64,000 nucleotides of DNA from assembly GCF_006345805.1 (NCBI RefSeq), contig NC_042997.1:111352001-111416000 (forward strand), given 5' to 3'. This document shows, in pieces, positions 31,462 through 61,385 of the stretch (within the stretch, counting starts at the first letter, position 1; each line of letters opens with the position of its first letter). A program made the position numbers and the translations under genes. The notes below the pieces were generated by a model. The model did not search any database, had not been told where the DNA came from, and worked only from the letters and a program-made list of their open reading frames with translations. This stretch comes from Octopus sinensis. Lineage: Eukaryota.

Positions 31462-32178
31462 TACACACCCTATATTTTCATCGGAACTTCAATATACGAG
31501 GTTGAGTCAAAAAGTAATGCCATTTTGTTTAGGACAGGTATAATTACCAACACAGGAACATGTATCATACATCAAAATGAAGCTGGTCCTCTCTGGATCA
31601 CATCCCTACTCAGCCATTTGCATGTTAATATCACGAGCAGGCTGTTCCGTCGAACGGATCAACTGCTACCCTCATCATCATAACCGACGAAGTGCCATTT
31701 TATATACATATATACATACACACATCACAATATTACCTGTAATCTATTGTGAACACACACACACACCGTTGGCAACACTCCTTGATCCTTTTATTGATTT
31801 CGTTTCACTTTCATCTTTTCTACAATTCGTTTCTTCTATTTGATAAAATAATTTTTTGTCTCACATCCACTGGACCCTATTTTATTTATACAAGAACCCG
31901 TCAATATTCTGCATAAATTATTAATATTTAATGGATGAAAAATACGATGGAACTTTGGGAGTTTTGCGCTCACCAGTATTGGAGAAGTGGAGTAAATATT
32001 GTAAGGAATCGATACAGTTACTTTGTCTTACAACTCTCACCTTGACGACCATTGTATCTCCAATACATTTGACATTCATCTGAATCAACATTATGTCTGT
32101 TAGTTCTATATTTAAGAGATGAGGGATTATGTACATTATTTACATTTGACGATATTCGTCCTCATCTTGTTTGTTATT

Positions 32179-32224
32179 AACACAACATTTCGGCTGATAT
32201 ACCCCCTAGCCTTCATCAGGTGTC
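32179..32224 (-). ncRNA. Minimal hammerhead in the Penelope inverted pLTR
   Basis: Minus strand GACAC-CTGATGA-A-GGCT-loop-AGCC-GAAATGTT|GTGTT; stems I and II pair; C15.2>T. Confidence 0.8.
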
Positions 32225-33130
32225 TTGGCTGCGCTATGTTGATGACACCTTTATACTCTGGCCCCACCAGGAAGATGTCCAAGTGCTGATAGATCATGTG
32301 AACTCAATAAAGCCATCCGTACAGTTCACAATGGAAAAGAAAAAAGACAATCAGCTAGCATTCCTGGGTGTATTAATAACACGCACCAAGTATGGATTCA
32401 AGACATCCGTATACCGCAAGCCGACCTTCACTGGACGATACCTCAACTTCAGTTCCCACCATCCACACAGTATAAAGAGAGGGATTGTTCAGTGCCTAAA
32501 ACATCGAGCAAAGAATATAAGTAGCGATCGTGATACACACCATCTATTAAGCAACAATTACCCCAAAAGCATACTCTCCACTCCAGTTATGAAGAAAAGA
32601 GAGGATGAAACCACTAAATTATCCATTGTCTGTCTACCCTATGTGAAAGGCCTCCCCGGAAAGATACAAAAGATATGTGGCCCATATGACATCAGATCAG
32701 TATTCAGGACTTCGCAAATATCTCCTTCAGGTAAAACCACCAATAGTAGGGAATATGGCCAAAAACTGCGTGTACTCCATCCCATGCAACTGTGGTAGGT
32801 TATACAAAGGCGAAACATGCTGCCCCGTCAAAATAAGGGTAGAGGAACATTGCAAAGCTGTGACACGGAGAGATATTGATAAATCGGGTATAGCTGATCA
32901 TGTATGGAAAAATGGAGACCACCTTCCCCTGTGGGATGAAGTTAAAATAATAGACAGAGAACACCACTGGAAAATACGAAAACTAAATGAAGCAGCACAT
33001 ATATTAGGACACAAGAACCTCCTAAGCAGACCGAGTGCAGATATGGGTAGCATATGGGAACTGGTATTAAGGAAGGATAGGAAAATATTAGATTTATAAG
33101 TCCTAAAAATTCACTCAATTATTGCCCACG

Positions 33131-33200
33131 GGCTTATGGCGTAGTGGTTAACAGCGTGGGCTACTAAACCTAAGATTCCGAGTTAGATTCCAAGCAGTGA
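33131..33200 (+). promoter_or_regulatory. tRNA-like internal Pol III promoter in the Penelope 3' region
   Basis: A-box TGGCGTAGTGG (33137-33147) and B-box-like GAGTTAGATTCC (33180-33191) at tRNA spacing. Confidence 0.65.
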
Positions 33201-33339
33201 CCTGAATAATAATAATGATAATAACATCGAAAGATACCTTAGGAATTAGAACTCAGGTTCGAAATTTCCCCAAGACACCTGATGAGGACAAATATCCGTC
33301 AAATGTAAATAATGTATTATGCCTGTCTACTACCATATA

Positions 33340-35099: not shown

Positions 35100-36746
35100 C
35101 TTGCGTCGTTGATTGACAGTATTGCAGAGACTTTATTCCTTACGTCCGCTTTGTTCACTTAACTTGTTCGCGAAGAACACCTTTCGAGGCTGATAAGTCC
35201 TATGTACACTCGAAATGGTTTTTAATCAATAAAAGCTAATTAAGATACCGCATTCAACATGCCAAGACAGTTACATAAGTGCACGACAGTAGTAGACTCG
35301 TCTGCCTGTTGTACTGCAGGTATTGGAAGTTCTTAAAAATCTTTAGAGCGCTTAAATGTTTTTTGTAGCTCCACATGTATGTAATTCAAATTATAACGAA
35401 TAATAAACCATAAAATAAATTTTATATTTTTCAAAATAAACCAAAACTAACATTAAGATGGAAAATAACGCTTATTTTTGTAATACTTCCATTTTATTTA
35501 TATTTGAAAAGTTTTCTCTGACTTTTTTGAAGTGCGAAAGTTTTGATCAGATTCTCCAAATTGATCTTACTTAACGCATCTTGTTCCATAAATAATAGAG
35601 ATAAGGCATCCTGAATGTTATTTTAGCAAGTTTAAAGCGATTTGTTTTGTGCCGGACACCATTTACTATTTCTGTGGTGCTCCACTTCTCTTGATGCCCT
35701 AAACACATGCTTATTTTGTTCAATGAATTACCCAGCGTTGTTTGGTCCAATGAAGCAGACCAATAACCAAAGATATTCCACCGTTGACCAACCCGTCTAT
35801 TTCGATTTCGAATATGTTTATCTTTTAAAGATGGTAGAGTCTGGTTTAAAGCAGGGTCGTCTTTGTACCATTACAGGCCCCGACCCCTGGCCAAATCAAT
35901 ACTCCCCCCCCCCAGTACTATGTATTGACGGCAAGCCACAGCATTTTTAGATTAGAATTGGGCACTTAGATCCGTGAGACTCTCGTGCAGTGTGTTCATG
36001 CCCGAAAACAGTTCTAGTTCAAGGCAGATTTGGCGCCTATTTCTTGCACGTCTGATTTAAGGGAGATTTGGCACATATTTCATGCATGCCGAACGAATGC
36101 TTGCATTCGAATGGACTCTTCTAAAACTACCCATGATTCCATGCGGTGCTGGTATTAAACTACGCGACGGATTATGGCGATTTTCCCGCTAAAATTTGAG
36201 ATGCTTTAAAAAAGTGATTTCCTTATGCTATCGAGTCTTTTTACCTGGAGACATTTCCAGAAACTTCTCAGGTAAGAAAAAATTGTATTTAATTCTAAAA
36301 CAAAGCTAGTTTAATATTAATCCCCTTTCGTGTACGCTCAAACTGAATGAACATACAATGTTAGAGTTGGAAATAATCTTGAAAACATTTTTAATAATCT
36401 TTTTTAGTGAATTGGTAGTCACCAATGTTCTGGTTTTAATTGTAATACTTTCTGTGTTGTAACGGAGCTGGTTGTTGCGTGTTCGAATGTAGCAATGTCC
36501 CAATATAACGTGGAAGTAAGTGTATACAGAAATAAATGTCAGAAGGCACGTTTTGTTTTTAAAGCATAGTAATTTATTTGGGATTGTTGACAAGTGCGGA
36601 GTAAAGTGAGCGTAGAATATGTAGGAGTCCGAGGGAAGCCATGAAAACTTACAATTGCAGAATTAGGTTAGAAGTTTGCAGTGCTAAGGATGTAAGTAAA
36701 GGGTACAGGCAGTAACCGGCGGATACGATGGCCGCTGTGAATTGTC

Positions 36747-37163
36747 TATTTCTTTACTACCCACAAGGGGCCGAACACAGAGAGGACAAACAAGGACAGA
36801 CAAACGGATTAAGTCGATTACATCGACTCCAGTGCGTAACTGGTACTTAATTTATCGACCCCGAAAGGATGAAAGACAAAGTCGACCTCGGCGGAATTTG
36901 AACTCAGAACGTAGCGGCAGACGAAATACCTATTTCTTTACTACCCACAAGGGGCTAAACACAGTGAGGACAATAAAGGACAGACAAACGGATTAGGTCG
37001 ATTACATCGATCCCAGAGCATAACTGGTACTTATTTAATCGACCCCGAAGGAATGAAAGGCAAAGTCGACCTCGGCGGAATTTGAACTCAGAACGTAACG
37101 GCAGACGAAATACGGCTACGTATTTCGCCCGGCATGCTAACGTTTCTGCCAGCTCGCCGCCTT
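36747..37163 (-). mobile_element. SINE family B with tandemly duplicated 3' part and 16-bp TSD
   Basis: TSD GCCGCTGTGA(A/T)..GTC at 36731-36746 and 37164-37179; block of about 184 bp repeated. Confidence 0.9.
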
Positions 37164-40299: not shown

Positions 40300-40800
40300 A
40301 TCCTCAATATATTCTGGCAGATTTGGTCATGAATATGGTCGTTGGTGCTTTTCGTCATCGGAGAACATTCACCCCTTTTAGATTACGTGTGTACGTAACA
40401 CACTGCTCATTGTTGTAAGGGGATTTTGAAACACCGATGTTTCGTCCTTAGTATATCTTCTCAGTCAAAGCTACCCCACCAGACTGATGAAGCTAACAAG
40501 AGTTCAAGCTTTTCTTCATAGAAATCACCAAATGGATTTCTGCGAGTACTTTTTCAATAATCTGCTTGTCAGAAATTGTTTGCTGTTTTTAGGAATAAGA
40601 ACCTGTACAATTATTGAATTCACAGGTCCAGTAGGGTAACTTTGACTGAGGAGACACATTAAAGTCGAAACACCACGGTATCTCGGTCCCCTTATGTTAA
40701 TAAATCCTGTTACGAACACATGTTGTCCAAAGGGGAAGATATTCTCCAATGACGATACCCAACAGTGATTAGTATATTTACGTTCGAATCTGACAGACTG
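40300..40800. mobile_element. Diverged inverted pair of family-2 hammerhead repeats
   Basis: Arms about 40300-40545 and 40567-40800; minus-strand variant hammerhead at 40425-40470. Confidence 0.7.
40641..40687 (+). ncRNA. Type-I hammerhead motif (family 2)
   Basis: TTTGA-CTGAGGA-GAC-ACATTAAA-GTC-GAAAC-ACC-AC-GGT-ATC|TCGG; core intact, G16.2>A mismatch. Confidence 0.72.
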
Positions 40801-45031: not shown

Positions 45032-45754
45032 TATATGTTTAAAATCTTGTACCTACATTTTCCAACCTTTTATTTCCTGATAGTTCCAGACTAGAATAGA
45101 ACTAACAACCTTTACTTTTAAACTAAAGACAGAAATATCCATATTTAGGGAACTACATACTTGTTTTATAAAAGGGATTTGACCAAATGGCTCACTCTCT
45201 TAGAGGCGGTATCATAGCCAAGGAAGATTATCCCAAGTGTGGTTATAGCTAATTGAAAACTATTTTGCTTTATCGGGTTCTGAAATAAAAACCTTTTCCA
45301 GTGGCGGCTCGAGTATAGAAACTGCATCACCCCCTATTTCCACTCAATATTATCGATAACATTTGATATAATGAGTCCTTTTTTCTTTAATTCTGTCTTT
45401 ATACTTGTACATTATATCATCCTTAAGCTTAATGTCAGTAGCCATCCCCTAGTTTCTGAAAAAAATACAAAAATCCTTGTATAGAACTGTGCACTTCACA
45501 GTTCCAGCAACACAGTGTTTGGCTAGTGTGAAGATAGGAAGCTTCACACTAGGGAAAGAGAGCACTCTGTAAACGACAGGGCCGGGTGAAAGGTAGTGTT
45601 TCTTTTAGACTCTGCGTGTGTTATACTTAAAAAAACAAGTTTATATTCTTGAATGAGAAAAAGTGTAGAATTAGATTATTATCCTGCTTCCAGCTTCAGT
45701 CTTGCTGACAGGATTTGAAAAAAAAGAGCATATCTCCCACCCCTTATTTTGTGA

Positions 45755-47549
45755 TGCAGAGATGCTCAAAATATCTGGTAGTGTCGGCTATAGCCTAGTC
45801 ACCCGTATAGTTAACCAGGTGATACACGAAGGAGTCATACCCAATGACTGGTGTAGCAGCATAATAGACAACTGCTACAAAGGTAAAGGTGACACCCTAC
45901 ATACAAATAATTACAGAGGTATCAAGCTGTTGGATCAGGTAATGAAGGTTACGGAGAGGGTCATAGCCCAACTAATTAGAGAGGGAGATAGTTTAGATGA
46001 GATGCAGTTTGGGTTCATGCCAGGGAAAAGCACCACTGATGCCATATTCCTGGTAAGACAGCTGCAGGAGAAATATCTAGCCAAAGATAAGCCCCTGTAC
46101 CTGGCTTTCATTGACATGGAGAGAGCCTTCGACAGGGTCCCCCGATCCCTTATCTGGTGGTCAATGAGGAAACTAGGGATAGATGAATGGTTTGTGAGAG
46201 CTGTGCAAGCCATGTACAGGGACGCTGCTAGTAAGGTGAGGGTTGGCAACAAGTACAGTGAAGAATTCCGGGTAGAGATTAGGGTCCACCAAGGCTCAGT
46301 CCTCAGCCCCCTCCTATTTATCGTAGTCCTCCAGGCAATAACGGAGGAATTCAAGACAGGATGCCCCTGGGAGCTCCTCTTCGCTGATGACCTTGCTCTA
46401 ATTGCTGAGTCACTATCGGAACTGGAGAAGTTTCAGGTGTGGCAGCAAGGATTAGAATCAAAGGGCCTTAGAGTCAACCTAGCTAAAACCAAAGTCCTAA
46501 TAAGTAGGAAGGTAGACAAGTCACAAACGCCTTCAGGTAGATGGCCTTGCTCGATCTGTAGAAAAGGCATAGGTAGAAACTCTGTAAGATGCACCAAGTG
46601 TAAGCTTATGGACACATAAGAGGTGCAGCAATGTCAAGGGAAGGCTAACTAGGAAGATAGTTTTTTGTATGTGGCAGATGCTCGGGAGCATTAACCTCTG
46701 AAAATCTGCAGAAAACAACTTCCGTCACTTTCCAGGGAGAAAAACTAGAAATAGTTGATAGCTTCCATTACCTAGGTGACCAAGTCAGTAGCGGGGGTGG
46801 GTGTGTTGAAAGTGTAACTGCTAGAGTAAGAATAGCCTGGGCAAAGTTCAAAGTGCTCTTACCTCTGCTAGGGACAAAAGGCCTCTCGCTCAGAGTAAAT
46901 GGCAGACTGTATGACGCATGTGTACGAACAGCCATGCTACATGGCAGTGAAACATGGGCCGTGACTGCTGAGGATATGCGTAAGCTTGCAAGAAATGAAG
47001 CCAGTATGCTCCGATGGATGTGTAATGTCAATGTTCATACTCGACAGAATGTAAGTACCTTGTGAGAGAAGTTGGACCTAAGAAGCATCAGTTATCATGT
47101 GCAAGAGAGACGTTTGCGCTGGTATGGTCATGTGGTGAGAATGGATGAAGATAGTTGTGTGAAAAAGTGCCACACCCTAGCGGTTGAGGGAACCTGTGGA
47201 AGAGGTAGACCCAGGAAAACCTGGGATGAGGTGGTGAAGCACGACATTCGAACTTTAGGTCTTACTGAAGAAATGACTAGAGACCGAGACCTTTGGAAGT
47301 ATACTGTGCGTGAGAAGACCCGGCAGGACAAGTGAGACCATAACCCATGGCCTCAGTCCACTTATGCATACCTTTCCTTCTTGGGACACAAAACTCTACT
47401 TGTGAAGACCTGTTGAGACAAGTGAAAATCAAAATCAAACCAAAATTGATCAACATCAATGGAAATTGTAGCTGTGATACAGACCCCAGTTGCACCGTCC
47501 AACCCATGCCAGCATGGAAAGCGGGGGCTAAACGCTGATGATGATGATG
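45755..47549 (+). mobile_element. 5'-truncated RTE-clade LINE (RT domain + shortened 3' UTR)
   Basis: NYRGIKLL, QFGF, AFIDMERAFD, VHQGSVLSP, LFADD motifs; (GAT)n tail; frameshifts and stops. Confidence 0.96.
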
Positions 47550-51270: not shown

Positions 51271-51345
51271 ATGAAGTCCCTTGCTCATGAGCAACAAATT
51301 GTTTTCGTCTACCGAATTTCACTTAAAGGAATTTAAGACATGGGG

Positions 51346-54300
51346 GCATGCAAGAAATAAGGTGGAGAGGAGGATCAGCTAGGTTCCTCACAGGCAAGGA
51401 ACGCAGGTACAAGATTTTCTGGGCAGGGAACACTGACGGGGTTGGTGGCGTGGGTATACTTATCGCTGAGAAATGGGTAGATAAAGTAATTGAGGTAATC
51501 AGAGTAAGTGACAGAATACTTAAGATTAGATTAGTGCTTCATCATAGTTTAGCAACCATTATATCAGCCTATGCTCCTCAGTCGGGGCTACCCGATGGAC
51601 AGAAAGACCGATTCTATGACACTCTACTGCAGACTACCTCATTGACGAACGACAGAGACCTTATCTTTGTGGCTGGTGACTTCAATGGTCACGTTGGACG
51701 ACATGCTGGGGGCTTCCATGGCGTACATGGAGGCTATGGCTCCCGCAACGAGGAGGGAACCAGGCTGCTGGAGTTCTGCGATGCAAATAATCTTCTGATT
51801 TGCAACACTAACTTCAGGAAACCTACCAGCCACCTAGTCACTTACCAATCGGGCCAACATACCAGCCAAATTGACTACATCCTTACAAGGCAAAGGGAGA
51901 GATGGCTGCTTATAAATGCCAAAACCTTCCCAGGTGAAGAATGTACCCCACAACATAGACTGGTAGTTAGTGACTTTAGGATCAGGACTAGGAGGACAAC
52001 CAGAAGACGACAAATATGGAGAAGAAGGATCTGGAAGCTTAAAGATCCTGCAAATGGACAGAGATTTAGGGACATATTACTTGAAGCCTCTGACGAAGTA
52101 GAAGGGGATAGAGCATCACAGGGGGTAGAAGACAGCTGGACGTTTCTAAGGGACAACCTGCTGAGAGCCACTGACCAGATCTGTGGCTGGTGCAAAGTCC
52201 CCTCTCGACCTAGAATAACGTGGTGGTGGAACAATATTGTAGACAGGGCTATTAGAGAAAAGAGACAGGCTTGGAAGGTCTGGAAAAATGGGGGTAGCAG
52301 GGAATTGTATCAGACTGCCAAAAAGAAGCTAGGAGACAGGTTTATTTAGCCAGAGGGGAAGCAGATAAGAAAAAATTTGCCAATGTTCTGCGCCGTGAGG
52401 ACCAAAGACTGGAGGTGTTTCGTGTTGCAAGACAGTGTGTGAGAGAGAATCGTGATGTGGTAGGAGAGAAGTGTGTTCGCATGGAAGATGGTTCACTTGC
52501 GCTAAATGAGGATGCAAAGAGAGAGGTTTGGAGATGCCACTATGAAAGGTTGCAGAATGAAGAAAATGAATGGGATAAAGAGAGTCTGCCCGAATGTTGA
52601 CCCAACAGAGGGACCAGCTATCCGAGTTGATAGTTCTGTGGTAGCTAAGGCAATTAGAAGCATGAAGACAGGGAAAGCCCCAGGCCCATCAGGAATCACT
52701 GCAGAGATGCTCAAAATGTCTGGTAGTGTCGGCTATAGCCTAGTCACCCATATAGTTAATCAGGTGATACACAAAGGGGTCATACCCAATGACTGGTGTA
52801 GCAGTATAATAGTCAACTGCTACAAAGGTAAAGGTGATGCCCTAGACACAAATAACTACAGAGGTATCAAGCTGTTGGACCAGGTGATGAAGGTTACGGA
52901 GAGGGTCATAGCCCAACTAATTAGAGAGAGAGTTAGTTTAGATGAGATGCAGTTTGGGTTTGTGCCAGGGAAAAGTACTACTGATGCTATATTCCTGGTA
53001 AGGCAGCTGCAGGAGAAATACCTAGCCAAAGATAAGCCCCTGTACCTGGCTTTTGTTGACATGGAGAAAGCCTTCGACAGGGTCCCCGATCCCTTATCTG
53101 GTGGGCAATGAGAAAACTAGGGATAGATGAATGGTTAGTGAGAGCTGTGCGGGCCATGTATAGGGACGCCGCTAGTAGGGTGAGGGTTGGAAATGAGTAT
53201 AGTGAAGAATTCCGGGTAGAGGTAGGGGTCCACCAAGGCTCAGTACTCAGCCCCCTCCTATTTATCATAGTCCTCCAGGCAATAACGGAGGAATTCAAGA
53301 CAGGATGCCCTTGGGAGCTCCTCTATGCTGATGACCTTGCTCTAATTGCTGAGTCGCTATCAGAACTGGAGGAGAAGTTTCAGGTGTGGAAACAAGGATT
53401 AGAATCGAAGGGCCTCAGAGTCAATCTAGCTAAAACCAAAGTCGTAATCAGTAGGAAGGTAGACAAATCACAAACACCTTCAGGTAGATGGCCCTGCTCG
53501 ATCTGTAGAAAAGGTGTAGGTAGAAACTCTATAAGATGCACCAAGTGTAAGCTATGGACACATAAGAGGTGCAGCAATGTCAAAGGAAGGCTAACTAGGA
53601 AGATGGTTTTTGTATGTGGCAGATGCTCAGGAACAATAAACACTGAAAATGCTCTGAGACCAACTTCCGTCACTTTCCAGGGAGAAAACTAGAAATAGTT
53701 GATAGTTTCCGTTACCTAGGTGACCAAGTCAGCAGCGGGGGCGGGTGTGCTGAAAGTGTAACTGCTAGAGTAAGAATAGCTTGGGCAAAGTTCAGAGAGC
53801 TCTTACCTCTGCTGGTGACAAAAGGCCTCTCGCACAGAGTGAAAGGCAGACTGTATGATGCGTGTGTACGAACAGCCATGCTACATGGCAGTGAAACATG
53901 GGCCGTGACTGCTGAGGATATGCGTAAGCTCGCTAGAAATGAAGCCAGTATGCTCCGATGGATGTGTAATGCCGGTACTCACACTCGGCAGAGTGTAAGT
54001 ACCTTGAGAGAAAAGCTGGACCTAAGAAGCATCAGTTGTGGTGTGCAAGAGAGACGTTTGCGCTGGTATGGTCATGTGGCGAGAATGGATGAAGATAGTT
54101 GTGTGAAAAAGAGCCACACCCTAGCGGTTGAGGGAACCTGTGGAAGAGGCAGACCCAGGAAAACCTGGGACGAGGTGGTGAAGCACGACCTTCGAACTTT
54201 AGGTCTCACTGAGGAAATGACTAGAGACCGAGACCTCTGGAAGTGTGCTGTGCACGAGAAGACCCGGCAGGACAAGTGAGTCCACAACCCGTGGCCTTCT

Positions 54301-59850: not shown

Positions 59851-60257
59851 TGTGAATATTATTTGGCTGTGTATATGGTTGCTGAGAAAGACTCTGCAAC
59901 ATGCTATTTCATGAATGATGTTGTTTAGCCCCGGGTCAGGTCGCGATTGAGTAGATATAGGATCAAAGAATTCCAGCCGTGATCATCCAGTTTCTTTTTA
60001 TTTAGGTATAAAGCATAATCGCTGGTCGGGCCACCATATTTCGTTATGCAACCACGATATACTCCCAAGTCTATGAAAGACTTATAAATCTTTACTGTAT
60101 CCCATATGTGTTAGAAATTCGATTCAATCACTTTTTTTAAGTGTTCCTCTACAGATTTTTCTACAGAATTTAGAGGCAGTATTGAAAATTATGACGTTTT
60201 GTATACGAATACATCTATGTAAACAATGCGATCGAACATGAAAAATTAGGTAATGGG

Positions 60258-60302
60258 TGTATATACAGGTTTCGGGAGTTTTTGCTCCCTTCTTCAGCAT
60301 TA
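60258..60302 (-). ncRNA. Hammerhead motif, inverted copy of the 114-bp unit
   Basis: Minus strand TAATG-CTGAAGA-A-GGGAG-CAAAAA-CTCCC-GAAACCTGTA|TATAC. Confidence 0.78.
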
Positions 60303-60397
60303 CATCCAACCCATTAATTGCCTGGAATGTGTTTAATATGTAAAACTGACATATCCAATTGTGTTACACCACTAAACTTAGTGGTTCATTTAAGCAA

Positions 60398-60744
60398 CGA
60401 GTTTCGTGGATGATTAATGGGTTGGATGTGGCACTGACGAAGGATCAAGAACTCCTGAAATATGTATATACTCCTCCATTACCTATTTTTGTATATTCGA
60501 TCGCATTGTTTCGAGTTTCGTGGATGTTTAATGGGTTGGATATGGCACTGATGAAGGATCAAGAACCCTTGAAATATGTATATACCCCTCCATTACCTAT
60601 TTTTGTATATTCGTTCGCATTGTTTCGAGTTTCGTGGATGTTTAATGGGTTGGATGTGGCATTGATGAAGGATCAAGAACTGAAATATGTATATACATCC
60701 ATTACCTATTTTTCTATCTTCGATCGCATTGTTTCAAGTTTCGT
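60398..60744 (+). repeat. Three tandem 114-bp units, each with a hammerhead-like core
   Basis: Unit starts 60398, 60512, 60626; cores CTGACGA (60434), CTGATGA (60548), TTGATGA (60662), each followed by AGGA..GAAATATGTA. Confidence 0.9.
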
Positions 60745-61385
60745 ACGACGGGCTTCTTTCAGTTTCCGTCTACCAAATCCACTCACAAGGCTTTGGTCGG
60801 CCCGAGGCTATAGTAGAAGACACTTGCCCAAGGTGCCACGCAGTGGAACTGAACTCGGAACCATGTGGCTGGTAAGCAAGCTACTTACCACACAGCCACT
60901 CCTATGCTTTCGGTGCAAATGGTTTTGTTATACGACGCCGTATTTTACAATCCTGCAAATAATAATAATGGTATTTTTATATAAGCTTAAAGCTTATGGA
61001 GATCACTGTGCAAATGACTAAGGGAAATAGTCTAATAAAGGGGCATATAAGCCCTCGACAGAAAAAAAGAAGGCTTTCCCATCCGCGTGTGAAGGTAACC
61101 TTGTGAGTGGATTTCGTACAGGGAAATGGAAAGAAACGGAAAGAAGACTGTCATATATGTGTGTATATTTGTGTATGTGTGTGCGTGTTTTCTTTTTGTA
61201 CCCCCACCATTGCTTGACAACTGATGTTGCTGTGTTTACATTCCTGTAACTTAGCGGTTTGGTAAAAGACATTGACAGAATGAGTACAAGGCTTAGAAAG
61301 AATAAATCCTGTGGTTGATTTCTTCGACCAACGACGGTGCTCCAGCATGGCCGCAGTCACATGACTGAAACAAGTAAAGCAATAA
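60745..61385. mobile_element. SINE A head half (-, 60745-60905) and SINE A tail part (+, about 61095-61385)
   Basis: Consensus matches. Confidence 0.85.

Follow-up and report, generated by a model that had tools for sequence, protein, structure and literature searches.

A 114-bp tandem hammerhead array in Octopus sinensis, very probably a local duplication within a fossil retrozyme-like repeat of about 407 bp

Non-LTR retrozymes of metazoans consist of monomers of 170-400 nt, as in a mussel family of 350-390 bp, and their mobilisation by Penelope has been proposed (Cervera and de la Pena 2020, PMC7229834). Penelope-like elements (PLEs) carry a tail of 30-40 bp and an inverted 5' copy, and form complex tandem and inverted insertions (PMC8557442). 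In vitro, a PLE protein starts reverse transcription at two internal RNA sites, and cleavage by the hammerhead ribozyme (HHR) is not needed (PMC11167929). In a preprint (bioRxiv 10.64898/2026.07.22.740005), non-LTR retrozymes are regarded as non-autonomous PLE derivatives, and PLE terminal sequence is proposed to be locally amplified into tandem repeats by unequal crossover; the tandem HHR repeats reported there have consensus units of 51-972 bp and are mostly inactive as dimers (one of nine predicted dimers was cleaved).

The stretch of Octopus sinensis DNA analysed here (64 kb; hereafter, the window) contains a 114-bp tandem hammerhead array, which is very probably a one-off, DNA-level duplication inside a fossil retrozyme-like repeat mobilised by Penelope. 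The 114-bp unit is an internal piece of a dispersed, non-coding, hammerhead-bearing repeat of about 407 bp, the parent family. Like metazoan non-LTR retrozymes (PMC7229834), the parent is non-coding, AT-rich and about 400 bp long, which places it among non-coding repeats of about 170-400 nt with a type I hammerhead; it has one such hammerhead, with a short palindromic stem III, and wrap-around head-to-tail copies among hundreds to thousands of copies. Unlike them, it is old, reaches about two units at most in the loci seen and is known here from DNA alone, and the 114-bp array, whose helices are broken, duplicates part of the unit at this one place. Like PLEs (PMC4209133, PMC8557442, PMC11167929), the parent shows 5' truncation, partial tandems, a head-to-head (inverted 5') arm, AT-rich flanks and, downstream of the hammerhead, a choice of two 3' termini. 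This situation is different from that of PLEs in that the parent has no ORF and its termini are offset by about 115 nt, which exceeds the 30-40 bp described for PLE tails. Its hammerhead, with A10.1-U11.1, a stem II of 5 bp and no extra base after A9, also differs from the minimal PLE hammerhead (extra base after A9, G10.1-C11.1, stem II of 7-8 bp). Short tandem hammerhead units and a proposed unequal exchange are shared with the retrozymes of the preprint, where the evidence, from vertebrates, consists of co-occurrence and pLTR homology; here it is insertion anatomy, and no homologous coding partner was found among the loci compared. The parent likely works, as judged from its sequence, like a non-LTR retrozyme mobilised by Penelope enzymes.

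The array itself is of little weight, being a decayed local duplication, and shows that short tandem hammerhead repeats obtained from tandem-repeat scans can be accidents within longer elements. The parent's insertions end at two fixed termini, which differ between the arms of an inverted pair and lie apart from the predicted cleavage site; this looks like a footprint of Penelope-type internal priming. Genomic anatomy thereby supports the proposal that Penelope enzymes mobilise animal retrozymes, in this case for a fossil family.

Structure and state of the 114-bp array

A reading of the window from its letters alone (the sequence-only reading) had described three head-to-tail units of 114, 114 and about 109 bp as a candidate miniature retrozyme. 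The tandem structure was recovered by TRF (period 114, 3.1 copies, 91% matches); the units measure 114, 114 and 109 bp, and after 9 nt of a fourth, overlooked in that reading, the array is cut off by half of a SINE. The features of the locus are as follows.

60005..60318, minus strand: inverted arm of an insertion of the ~407-bp family (family positions ~99 to ~410), ending at the second fixed terminus, T405
60262..60297, minus strand: hammerhead of the inverted arm, with intact core letters, a 5-bp stem II with an inserted G, and a broken stem III (C.A)
60319..60397, plus strand: start of the forward arm (family positions ~4-85)
60398..60511, plus strand: unit 1, with intact core (60434-60440) and GAAA (60457-60460), 4/5 stem II pairs and a C.A mismatch in stem I
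60460-60469, plus strand: near-palindromic stem III of unit 1, with predicted cleavage after 60468 or 60470
60512..60625, plus strand: unit 2, with intact core, 3/5 stem II pairs and the stem I mismatch of unit 1
60626..60734, plus strand: unit 3, with core C3 changed to U and a 3-nt deletion in stem II
60735..60743, plus strand: 9-nt start of a fourth unit; nothing more of the forward arm is present, and its T290 terminus is absent
60744..60903, plus strand: 3' half of a SINE-like repeat, which is abundant and adjoins the array

The array had also been credited with a diverged upstream inverted copy of 98 bp with an intact core. There is indeed a copy at 60221-60318 (80% identical to unit 3) that keeps all ten core letters, but the second pair of its stem III is a C.A mismatch, and the arm, far from ending after 98 bp, continues to about 60005. 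The 79-bp "spacer" between copy and array (60319-60397) proved to be 407-bp family sequence. On this sequence anatomy, the "inverted copy" is shown to be the other arm of one family insertion, with the minus arm running from 60318 to about 60005 and the plus arm beginning at about 60319. Its different stem II was taken for natural covariation, which is not confirmed; it consists of a single G insertion plus a T>C substitution. The closing pair is A/T in 50, A/C in six and G/T in three of 65 copies, and the inverted arm alone (1/65) combines the inserted G with the C, which six other copies carry uncompensated.

The units keep 10/10 (unit 1), 10/10 (unit 2) and 9/10 (unit 3) core letters, and the stem II pairs present fall from 4/5 through 3/5 to 2/5. 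All three share a G>T change in stem II that is seen in only one of 75 family copies; unit 2 has lost one further pair, and in unit 3 the C3U change and the 3-nt deletion are as suspected from the letters. The weakness of stem I noted there is also real: it is mismatched in all three units, by a C.A pair in the first register and by two mismatches in the second. The C responsible is not private decay of the window units: it occurs in 22 of 99 family copies, where it does not seem to mark a subfamily, and may have been tolerated. Cleavage is predicted after unit position 71 or 73, and both registers are broken in the window, where none of the hammerheads retains both core and helices in either register; the array therefore offers no complete type I hammerhead in consecutive units.

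Tandem hammerheads with such a stem III act as dimers, the double hammerhead being the working form (PMC4209133). Folded together as a double hammerhead, units 1 and 2 can form a 10-bp stem III between them, but five (register A) or seven (register B) of the other required pairs cannot form. The predicted 114-nt circle folds at -16.9 kcal/mol, no better than 100 shuffles (z +0.39), and is thus unlike a highly self-paired circular monomer. Folding energy was dropped as a test of activity, because it does not separate the window units (hammerhead folds 10-23 kcal/mol above the ensemble) from well-paired family copies (5.7 to about 15).

When both strands of the 64 kb were scanned for the core, stem II was paired at five sites: in units 1 and 2, in the inverted copy (minus strand, CTGA at 60297), in a hammerhead at 32219 (minus strand), which is unrelated to the array, and at 40646 (plus strand), a lone CTGAGGA...GAAA with a stem II of just 3 bp that is probably due to chance. 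No Rfam match reached the gathering score anywhere in the window, and the 223-codon open frame spanning the array (60350-61021) has no Pfam match. Another tandem, of 184 bp (2.0 copies, 91%), lies at 36746-37113; a tandem of the same period (2.9 copies) occurs at 438-967 of a family locus, L013, no hammerhead core being flagged in that array.

Three probable DNA runs (X1, X2 and X3; kind unrecorded; 1.5-3.8 Gb, from two studies) were compared with the assembly, of which X1 may itself be the source run. Their unit-specific contigs differ from it at 0-1 letters and have about single-copy depth: 36-46 on the array units against 48-51 on neighbouring pieces in X1, 5.3-6.8 against 4.2-6.9 in X2, and 8.8-9.2 for units 2-3 in X3. 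The array is therefore not a longer array collapsed in assembly. No contig of X1-X3 spans a unit junction with 31 letters on each side (the best has 30). In X4, a guessed RNA run, the contigs are pieces with 3-6 other letters per 42-55 nt, that is, other family copies; they leave 60490-60675 uncovered and have no bearing either way on expression.

The junction between units was found only at this locus. Two exact junction patterns gave two matches each, both inside the window. A 116-nt query centred on the junction, in which a daughter insertion would rank at the top, was matched across the junction in the window alone among the best 40 of 143 candidates; the other 47 of 51 matches stop at query position 57 or start at position 59 or later. 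TRF found no sub-unit hammerhead tandem, and no 114-bp array, in 89 other loci. Elsewhere the unit was found only within the ~407-bp monomer, which is the DNA part of what the sequence-only reading had named as refuting its candidate. The class assigned there is roughly right, a type I hammerhead in a non-coding, partly tandem retroelement akin to non-LTR retrozymes and Penelope pseudo-LTRs; a miniature retrozyme of 114 nt is not supported. By these searches, the array does not represent a dispersed, mobilised monomer family, and its 114-bp repeat is no mobile-element unit.

The parent family and its insertions

In other loci, the sequence of 60319-60397 lies before the 114-bp unit and the reverse complement of 60016-60220 comes after it; because the same family sequence flanks the hammerhead piece, the unit belongs to a longer repeat, with a period of about 407. 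Depending on the query, 883-2072 first-look candidates were obtained in the 2.72-Gb genome, of which the 40 best per query were scored: 883 with unit 1 (the top match outside the window being 89% identical) and 1989 with a natural copy of 405 nt, which also gave wrap-around tandems. A 33-nt core pattern matched 25 times, always in separate loci (control, 0). Three of these 25 were among 61 copies already collected, which gives roughly 500 copies as a low estimate by hand. Best non-self matches are 82-89% identical, and the top matches of a third query did not exceed 82% where they aligned. Copies differ from the column majority by a median of 11.7% and from one another by 20.5% (75 copies), and by this divergence the family is an old one. 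An arm of at least 430 nt is present in 21 of 74 loci, the longest being 809 nt (about two units). No multimers were seen among the loci examined, and a 401-bp dimer is the sole hammerhead-core tandem besides that of the window (TRF, 90 loci). No published description of the family was found in the literature, although it may already stand in supplements or repeat libraries; the portion of PMC13282606 consulted does not mention ribozymes or retrozymes.

The family hammerhead has a 5-bp stem II with an A-U closing pair and a stem III within a 10-nt palindrome. Conservation reaches 96% in its ten core columns and 88% in the remaining ones (99 copies), with variation at N7 (73%), at a position in loop II (58%) and at the centre of the palindrome (62%), a pattern that suggests selection on the ribozyme in source copies. 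Outside the window, the whole core is kept in 43 of 61 copies, and the helices as well in 10 (first register) or three (second register). When 29 natural unit-length arms were folded as circles, the median z was -0.68 and four fell below -2 (12 shuffles each, on copies decayed by about 12%).

Before counting, duplicate loci were dropped (11 in one set, three in another). The third query supplied 30 loci, of which 16 were new and were used solely in the 5'-flank, TRF/terminus and 99-copy conservation analyses. Loci L042 and L051 have flanks that are 93% alike and contain a near-dimer of the unit; they are likely a segmental duplicate or a haplotype pair, and both remain among the 74 loci, L042 being omitted from the 99-copy count. 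Together with L008, L015 and L019, they carry unrelated later insertions at about the same AT-rich, partly palindromic place of the unit, family position ~350, a possible insertion hotspot; a longer family variant, considered because of gaps near position 350, was rejected since the gaps are these insertions. An apparent internal inverted repeat was likewise an artefact, the query L100 itself being an inverted pair.

Among 84 arms from 49 loci picked by hammerhead alone, 33 end at T290 (family position 270-310; 8.5 expected, binomial p 2e-12) and 19 at T405 (392-15; 6.4 expected, p 1e-5), in bins chosen after the histogram had been inspected; 5' starts show no such piles there (eight and four). 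The two termini are about 115 nt apart, and neither is at the predicted cleavage site, T290 lying about 135 nt past it. Near that site there are only four 3' ends and four 5' starts of the 84 arms (7.4 expected), whereas 29 of the 33 T290 arms pass through it. Because these arms cross the site and ends do not collect there, the template is inferred to have been circular or uncleaved. Head-to-head pairs were found 23 times in 74 loci: nine have one arm at each terminus, eight combine T405 with another end (the window locus among them), three combine T290 with another end, and three have neither. In no pair do both arms share a terminus (0/23), and arms at T405 are more often paired (12/19) than those at T290 (10/33; Fisher p 0.04). 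Insertion flanks are AT-rich (0.69 vs 0.62).

Coding Penelope-like elements for comparison

A control is provided by the window itself, in a younger family:

32080-33330, RT-thumb and GIY-YIG-like frames on the plus strand: 5'-truncated PLE of another family

In this element, the inverted pLTR carries a minimal hammerhead (minus strand, CTGA at 32219), and a deleted pLTR lies near 33275-33310; its RVT_1 match is weak (E 0.0086), and the other frame is GIY-YIG-like by eye. The family gave 2426 first-look candidates with 88-95% identity. Judged by eye, at least 12 of its 29 loci have opposite-strand arms whose ends are about 25-30 nt from each other, and in two of 29 both arms reach the long end. 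This agrees with the tail and inverted 5' copy of PLEs (PMC8557442) and with the two priming sites inside the RNA seen in vitro (PMC11167929). The 407-bp family and this coding family thus share the two-terminus insertion pattern.

No coding partner with shared sequence was found for the 407-bp family in 30 GIY-YIG loci (PF01541; 150 matches scored of 5029 candidates), and its sequence is absent from the 29 loci of the control family. A weak AT-rich match to one GIY-YIG locus, L081, was judged to be chance. The GIY-YIG matches often lie in long open frames of 780-883 codons, several of them equal-scoring (for example L069, L070 and C6:12733272), and on these frames a young coding GIY-YIG family is present in the genome; 19 of the 30 loci form one DNA cluster, in which a strict scan found no hammerhead. 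The window also holds LINE fragments, at 45675-47065 and 51327-54279, comprising an RT frame and a series of endonuclease, RT and PHD finger split across several frames.

Origin of the array

Compared pairwise, the units differ from one another at 7/114, 6/109 and 6/109 positions (about 6%), and they differ from the inverted arm at 16/97, 21/97 and 17/94 positions (17-22%), with unit positions 1-5 ignored in the unit comparison as alignment-edge artefacts. Being about three times closer to one another than to the inverted arm, the units were likely duplicated long after the insertion; by this measure, the duplications would have about a third of the insertion's age. In the 3' half, units 1 and 2 have derived changes in common (a 2-nt insertion and two substitutions, at positions 94 and 98), and units 2 and 3 share two derived changes in the 5' half, at positions 16 and 41, where unit 1 matches the family copy L005. 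We infer from this pattern an unequal exchange with a break between unit positions 42 and 74, an interval that rests on two sites, one a transversion and the other a CpG transition. It covers 33 of 114 positions and contains the predicted cleavage site, which would be expected for 29% of random breaks. The array could instead have been made during insertion, by template jumps of a Penelope-type RT, with later gene conversion keeping the units alike; PLE insertions are indeed complex, tandem and inverted (PMC8557442), and the unit junction has no clear microhomology. We consider this improbable, because the threefold closeness of the units, their common derived changes (above all the insertion and two substitutions of units 1 and 2) and the lack of a sub-unit tandem in all 89 other loci speak against it.

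Most improbable of all is a working miniature retrozyme, in which units 1 and 2 would cleave as a double hammerhead to give a remobilisable 114-nt circle. The intact cores of these units, their near-palindromic stem III, the possible 10-bp inter-unit stem III, the size range of tandem HHR repeats in the preprint and the position of the cleavage site within the break interval are all compatible with it. However, junction searches of the genome found no daughter copy, the five or seven missing dimer pairs and the shuffle-like circle argue against function, the units are decaying, with the core of unit 3 changed, and eight of nine predicted dimers in the preprint went uncleaved. It is equally hard to credit a newborn form, not yet spread, whose hammerheads 114 nt apart would, the stem I mismatch notwithstanding, act as a cleaving dimer; if true, its circle would be shorter than the ~170-400 nt reported for invertebrate retrozymes. 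Likely, then, the 114-bp units make no mobile 114-nt RNA. Rather less remote, though still unlikely, is that the array arose by duplication as proposed, with the 407-bp repeat being only an old coding PLE's pseudo-LTR and not an independent non-coding element. The insertion pattern resembles that of the coding family, where most copies are short, 5'-truncated pLTR pieces with the coding body in just four of 29 loci. Against this, the long arms wrap into the 407-bp unit and not into an ORF (21/74 loci), 79 unpaired 5' flanks have no common sequence at a fixed family position, and tblastn of PLE frames at the arms gives just short matches from the first 26 residues of a frame, overlapping the pLTR of the control family.

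For duplication within a Penelope-mobilised, retrozyme-like repeat, the following course is proposed. In the parent family, the 407-nt unit would be present in RNA as a circle or an uncleaved multimer, which a Penelope-like RT/GIY-YIG enzyme would copy into DNA in trans. With priming fixed to two places within the RNA, T290 and T405, the products would be arms truncated at the 5' end, partial tandems and head-to-head pairs whose two arms stop at different termini. Once inserted in the window, the copy likely lost a stem II pair from its plus arm, which would then have been copied two or three times over 114 bp, through slippage or unequal exchange. Its end would have been lost last, through a deletion beside the SINE: since the locus has no family sequence beyond the SINE half, a deletion likely removed the end of the array, including the T290 terminus, together with the 5' half of the SINE. 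As to the source, L005 (G000:C1:110396427), about 1 Mb from the window on the same chromosome, has several of the rare letters of the window units, which suggests a close source relationship between the two.
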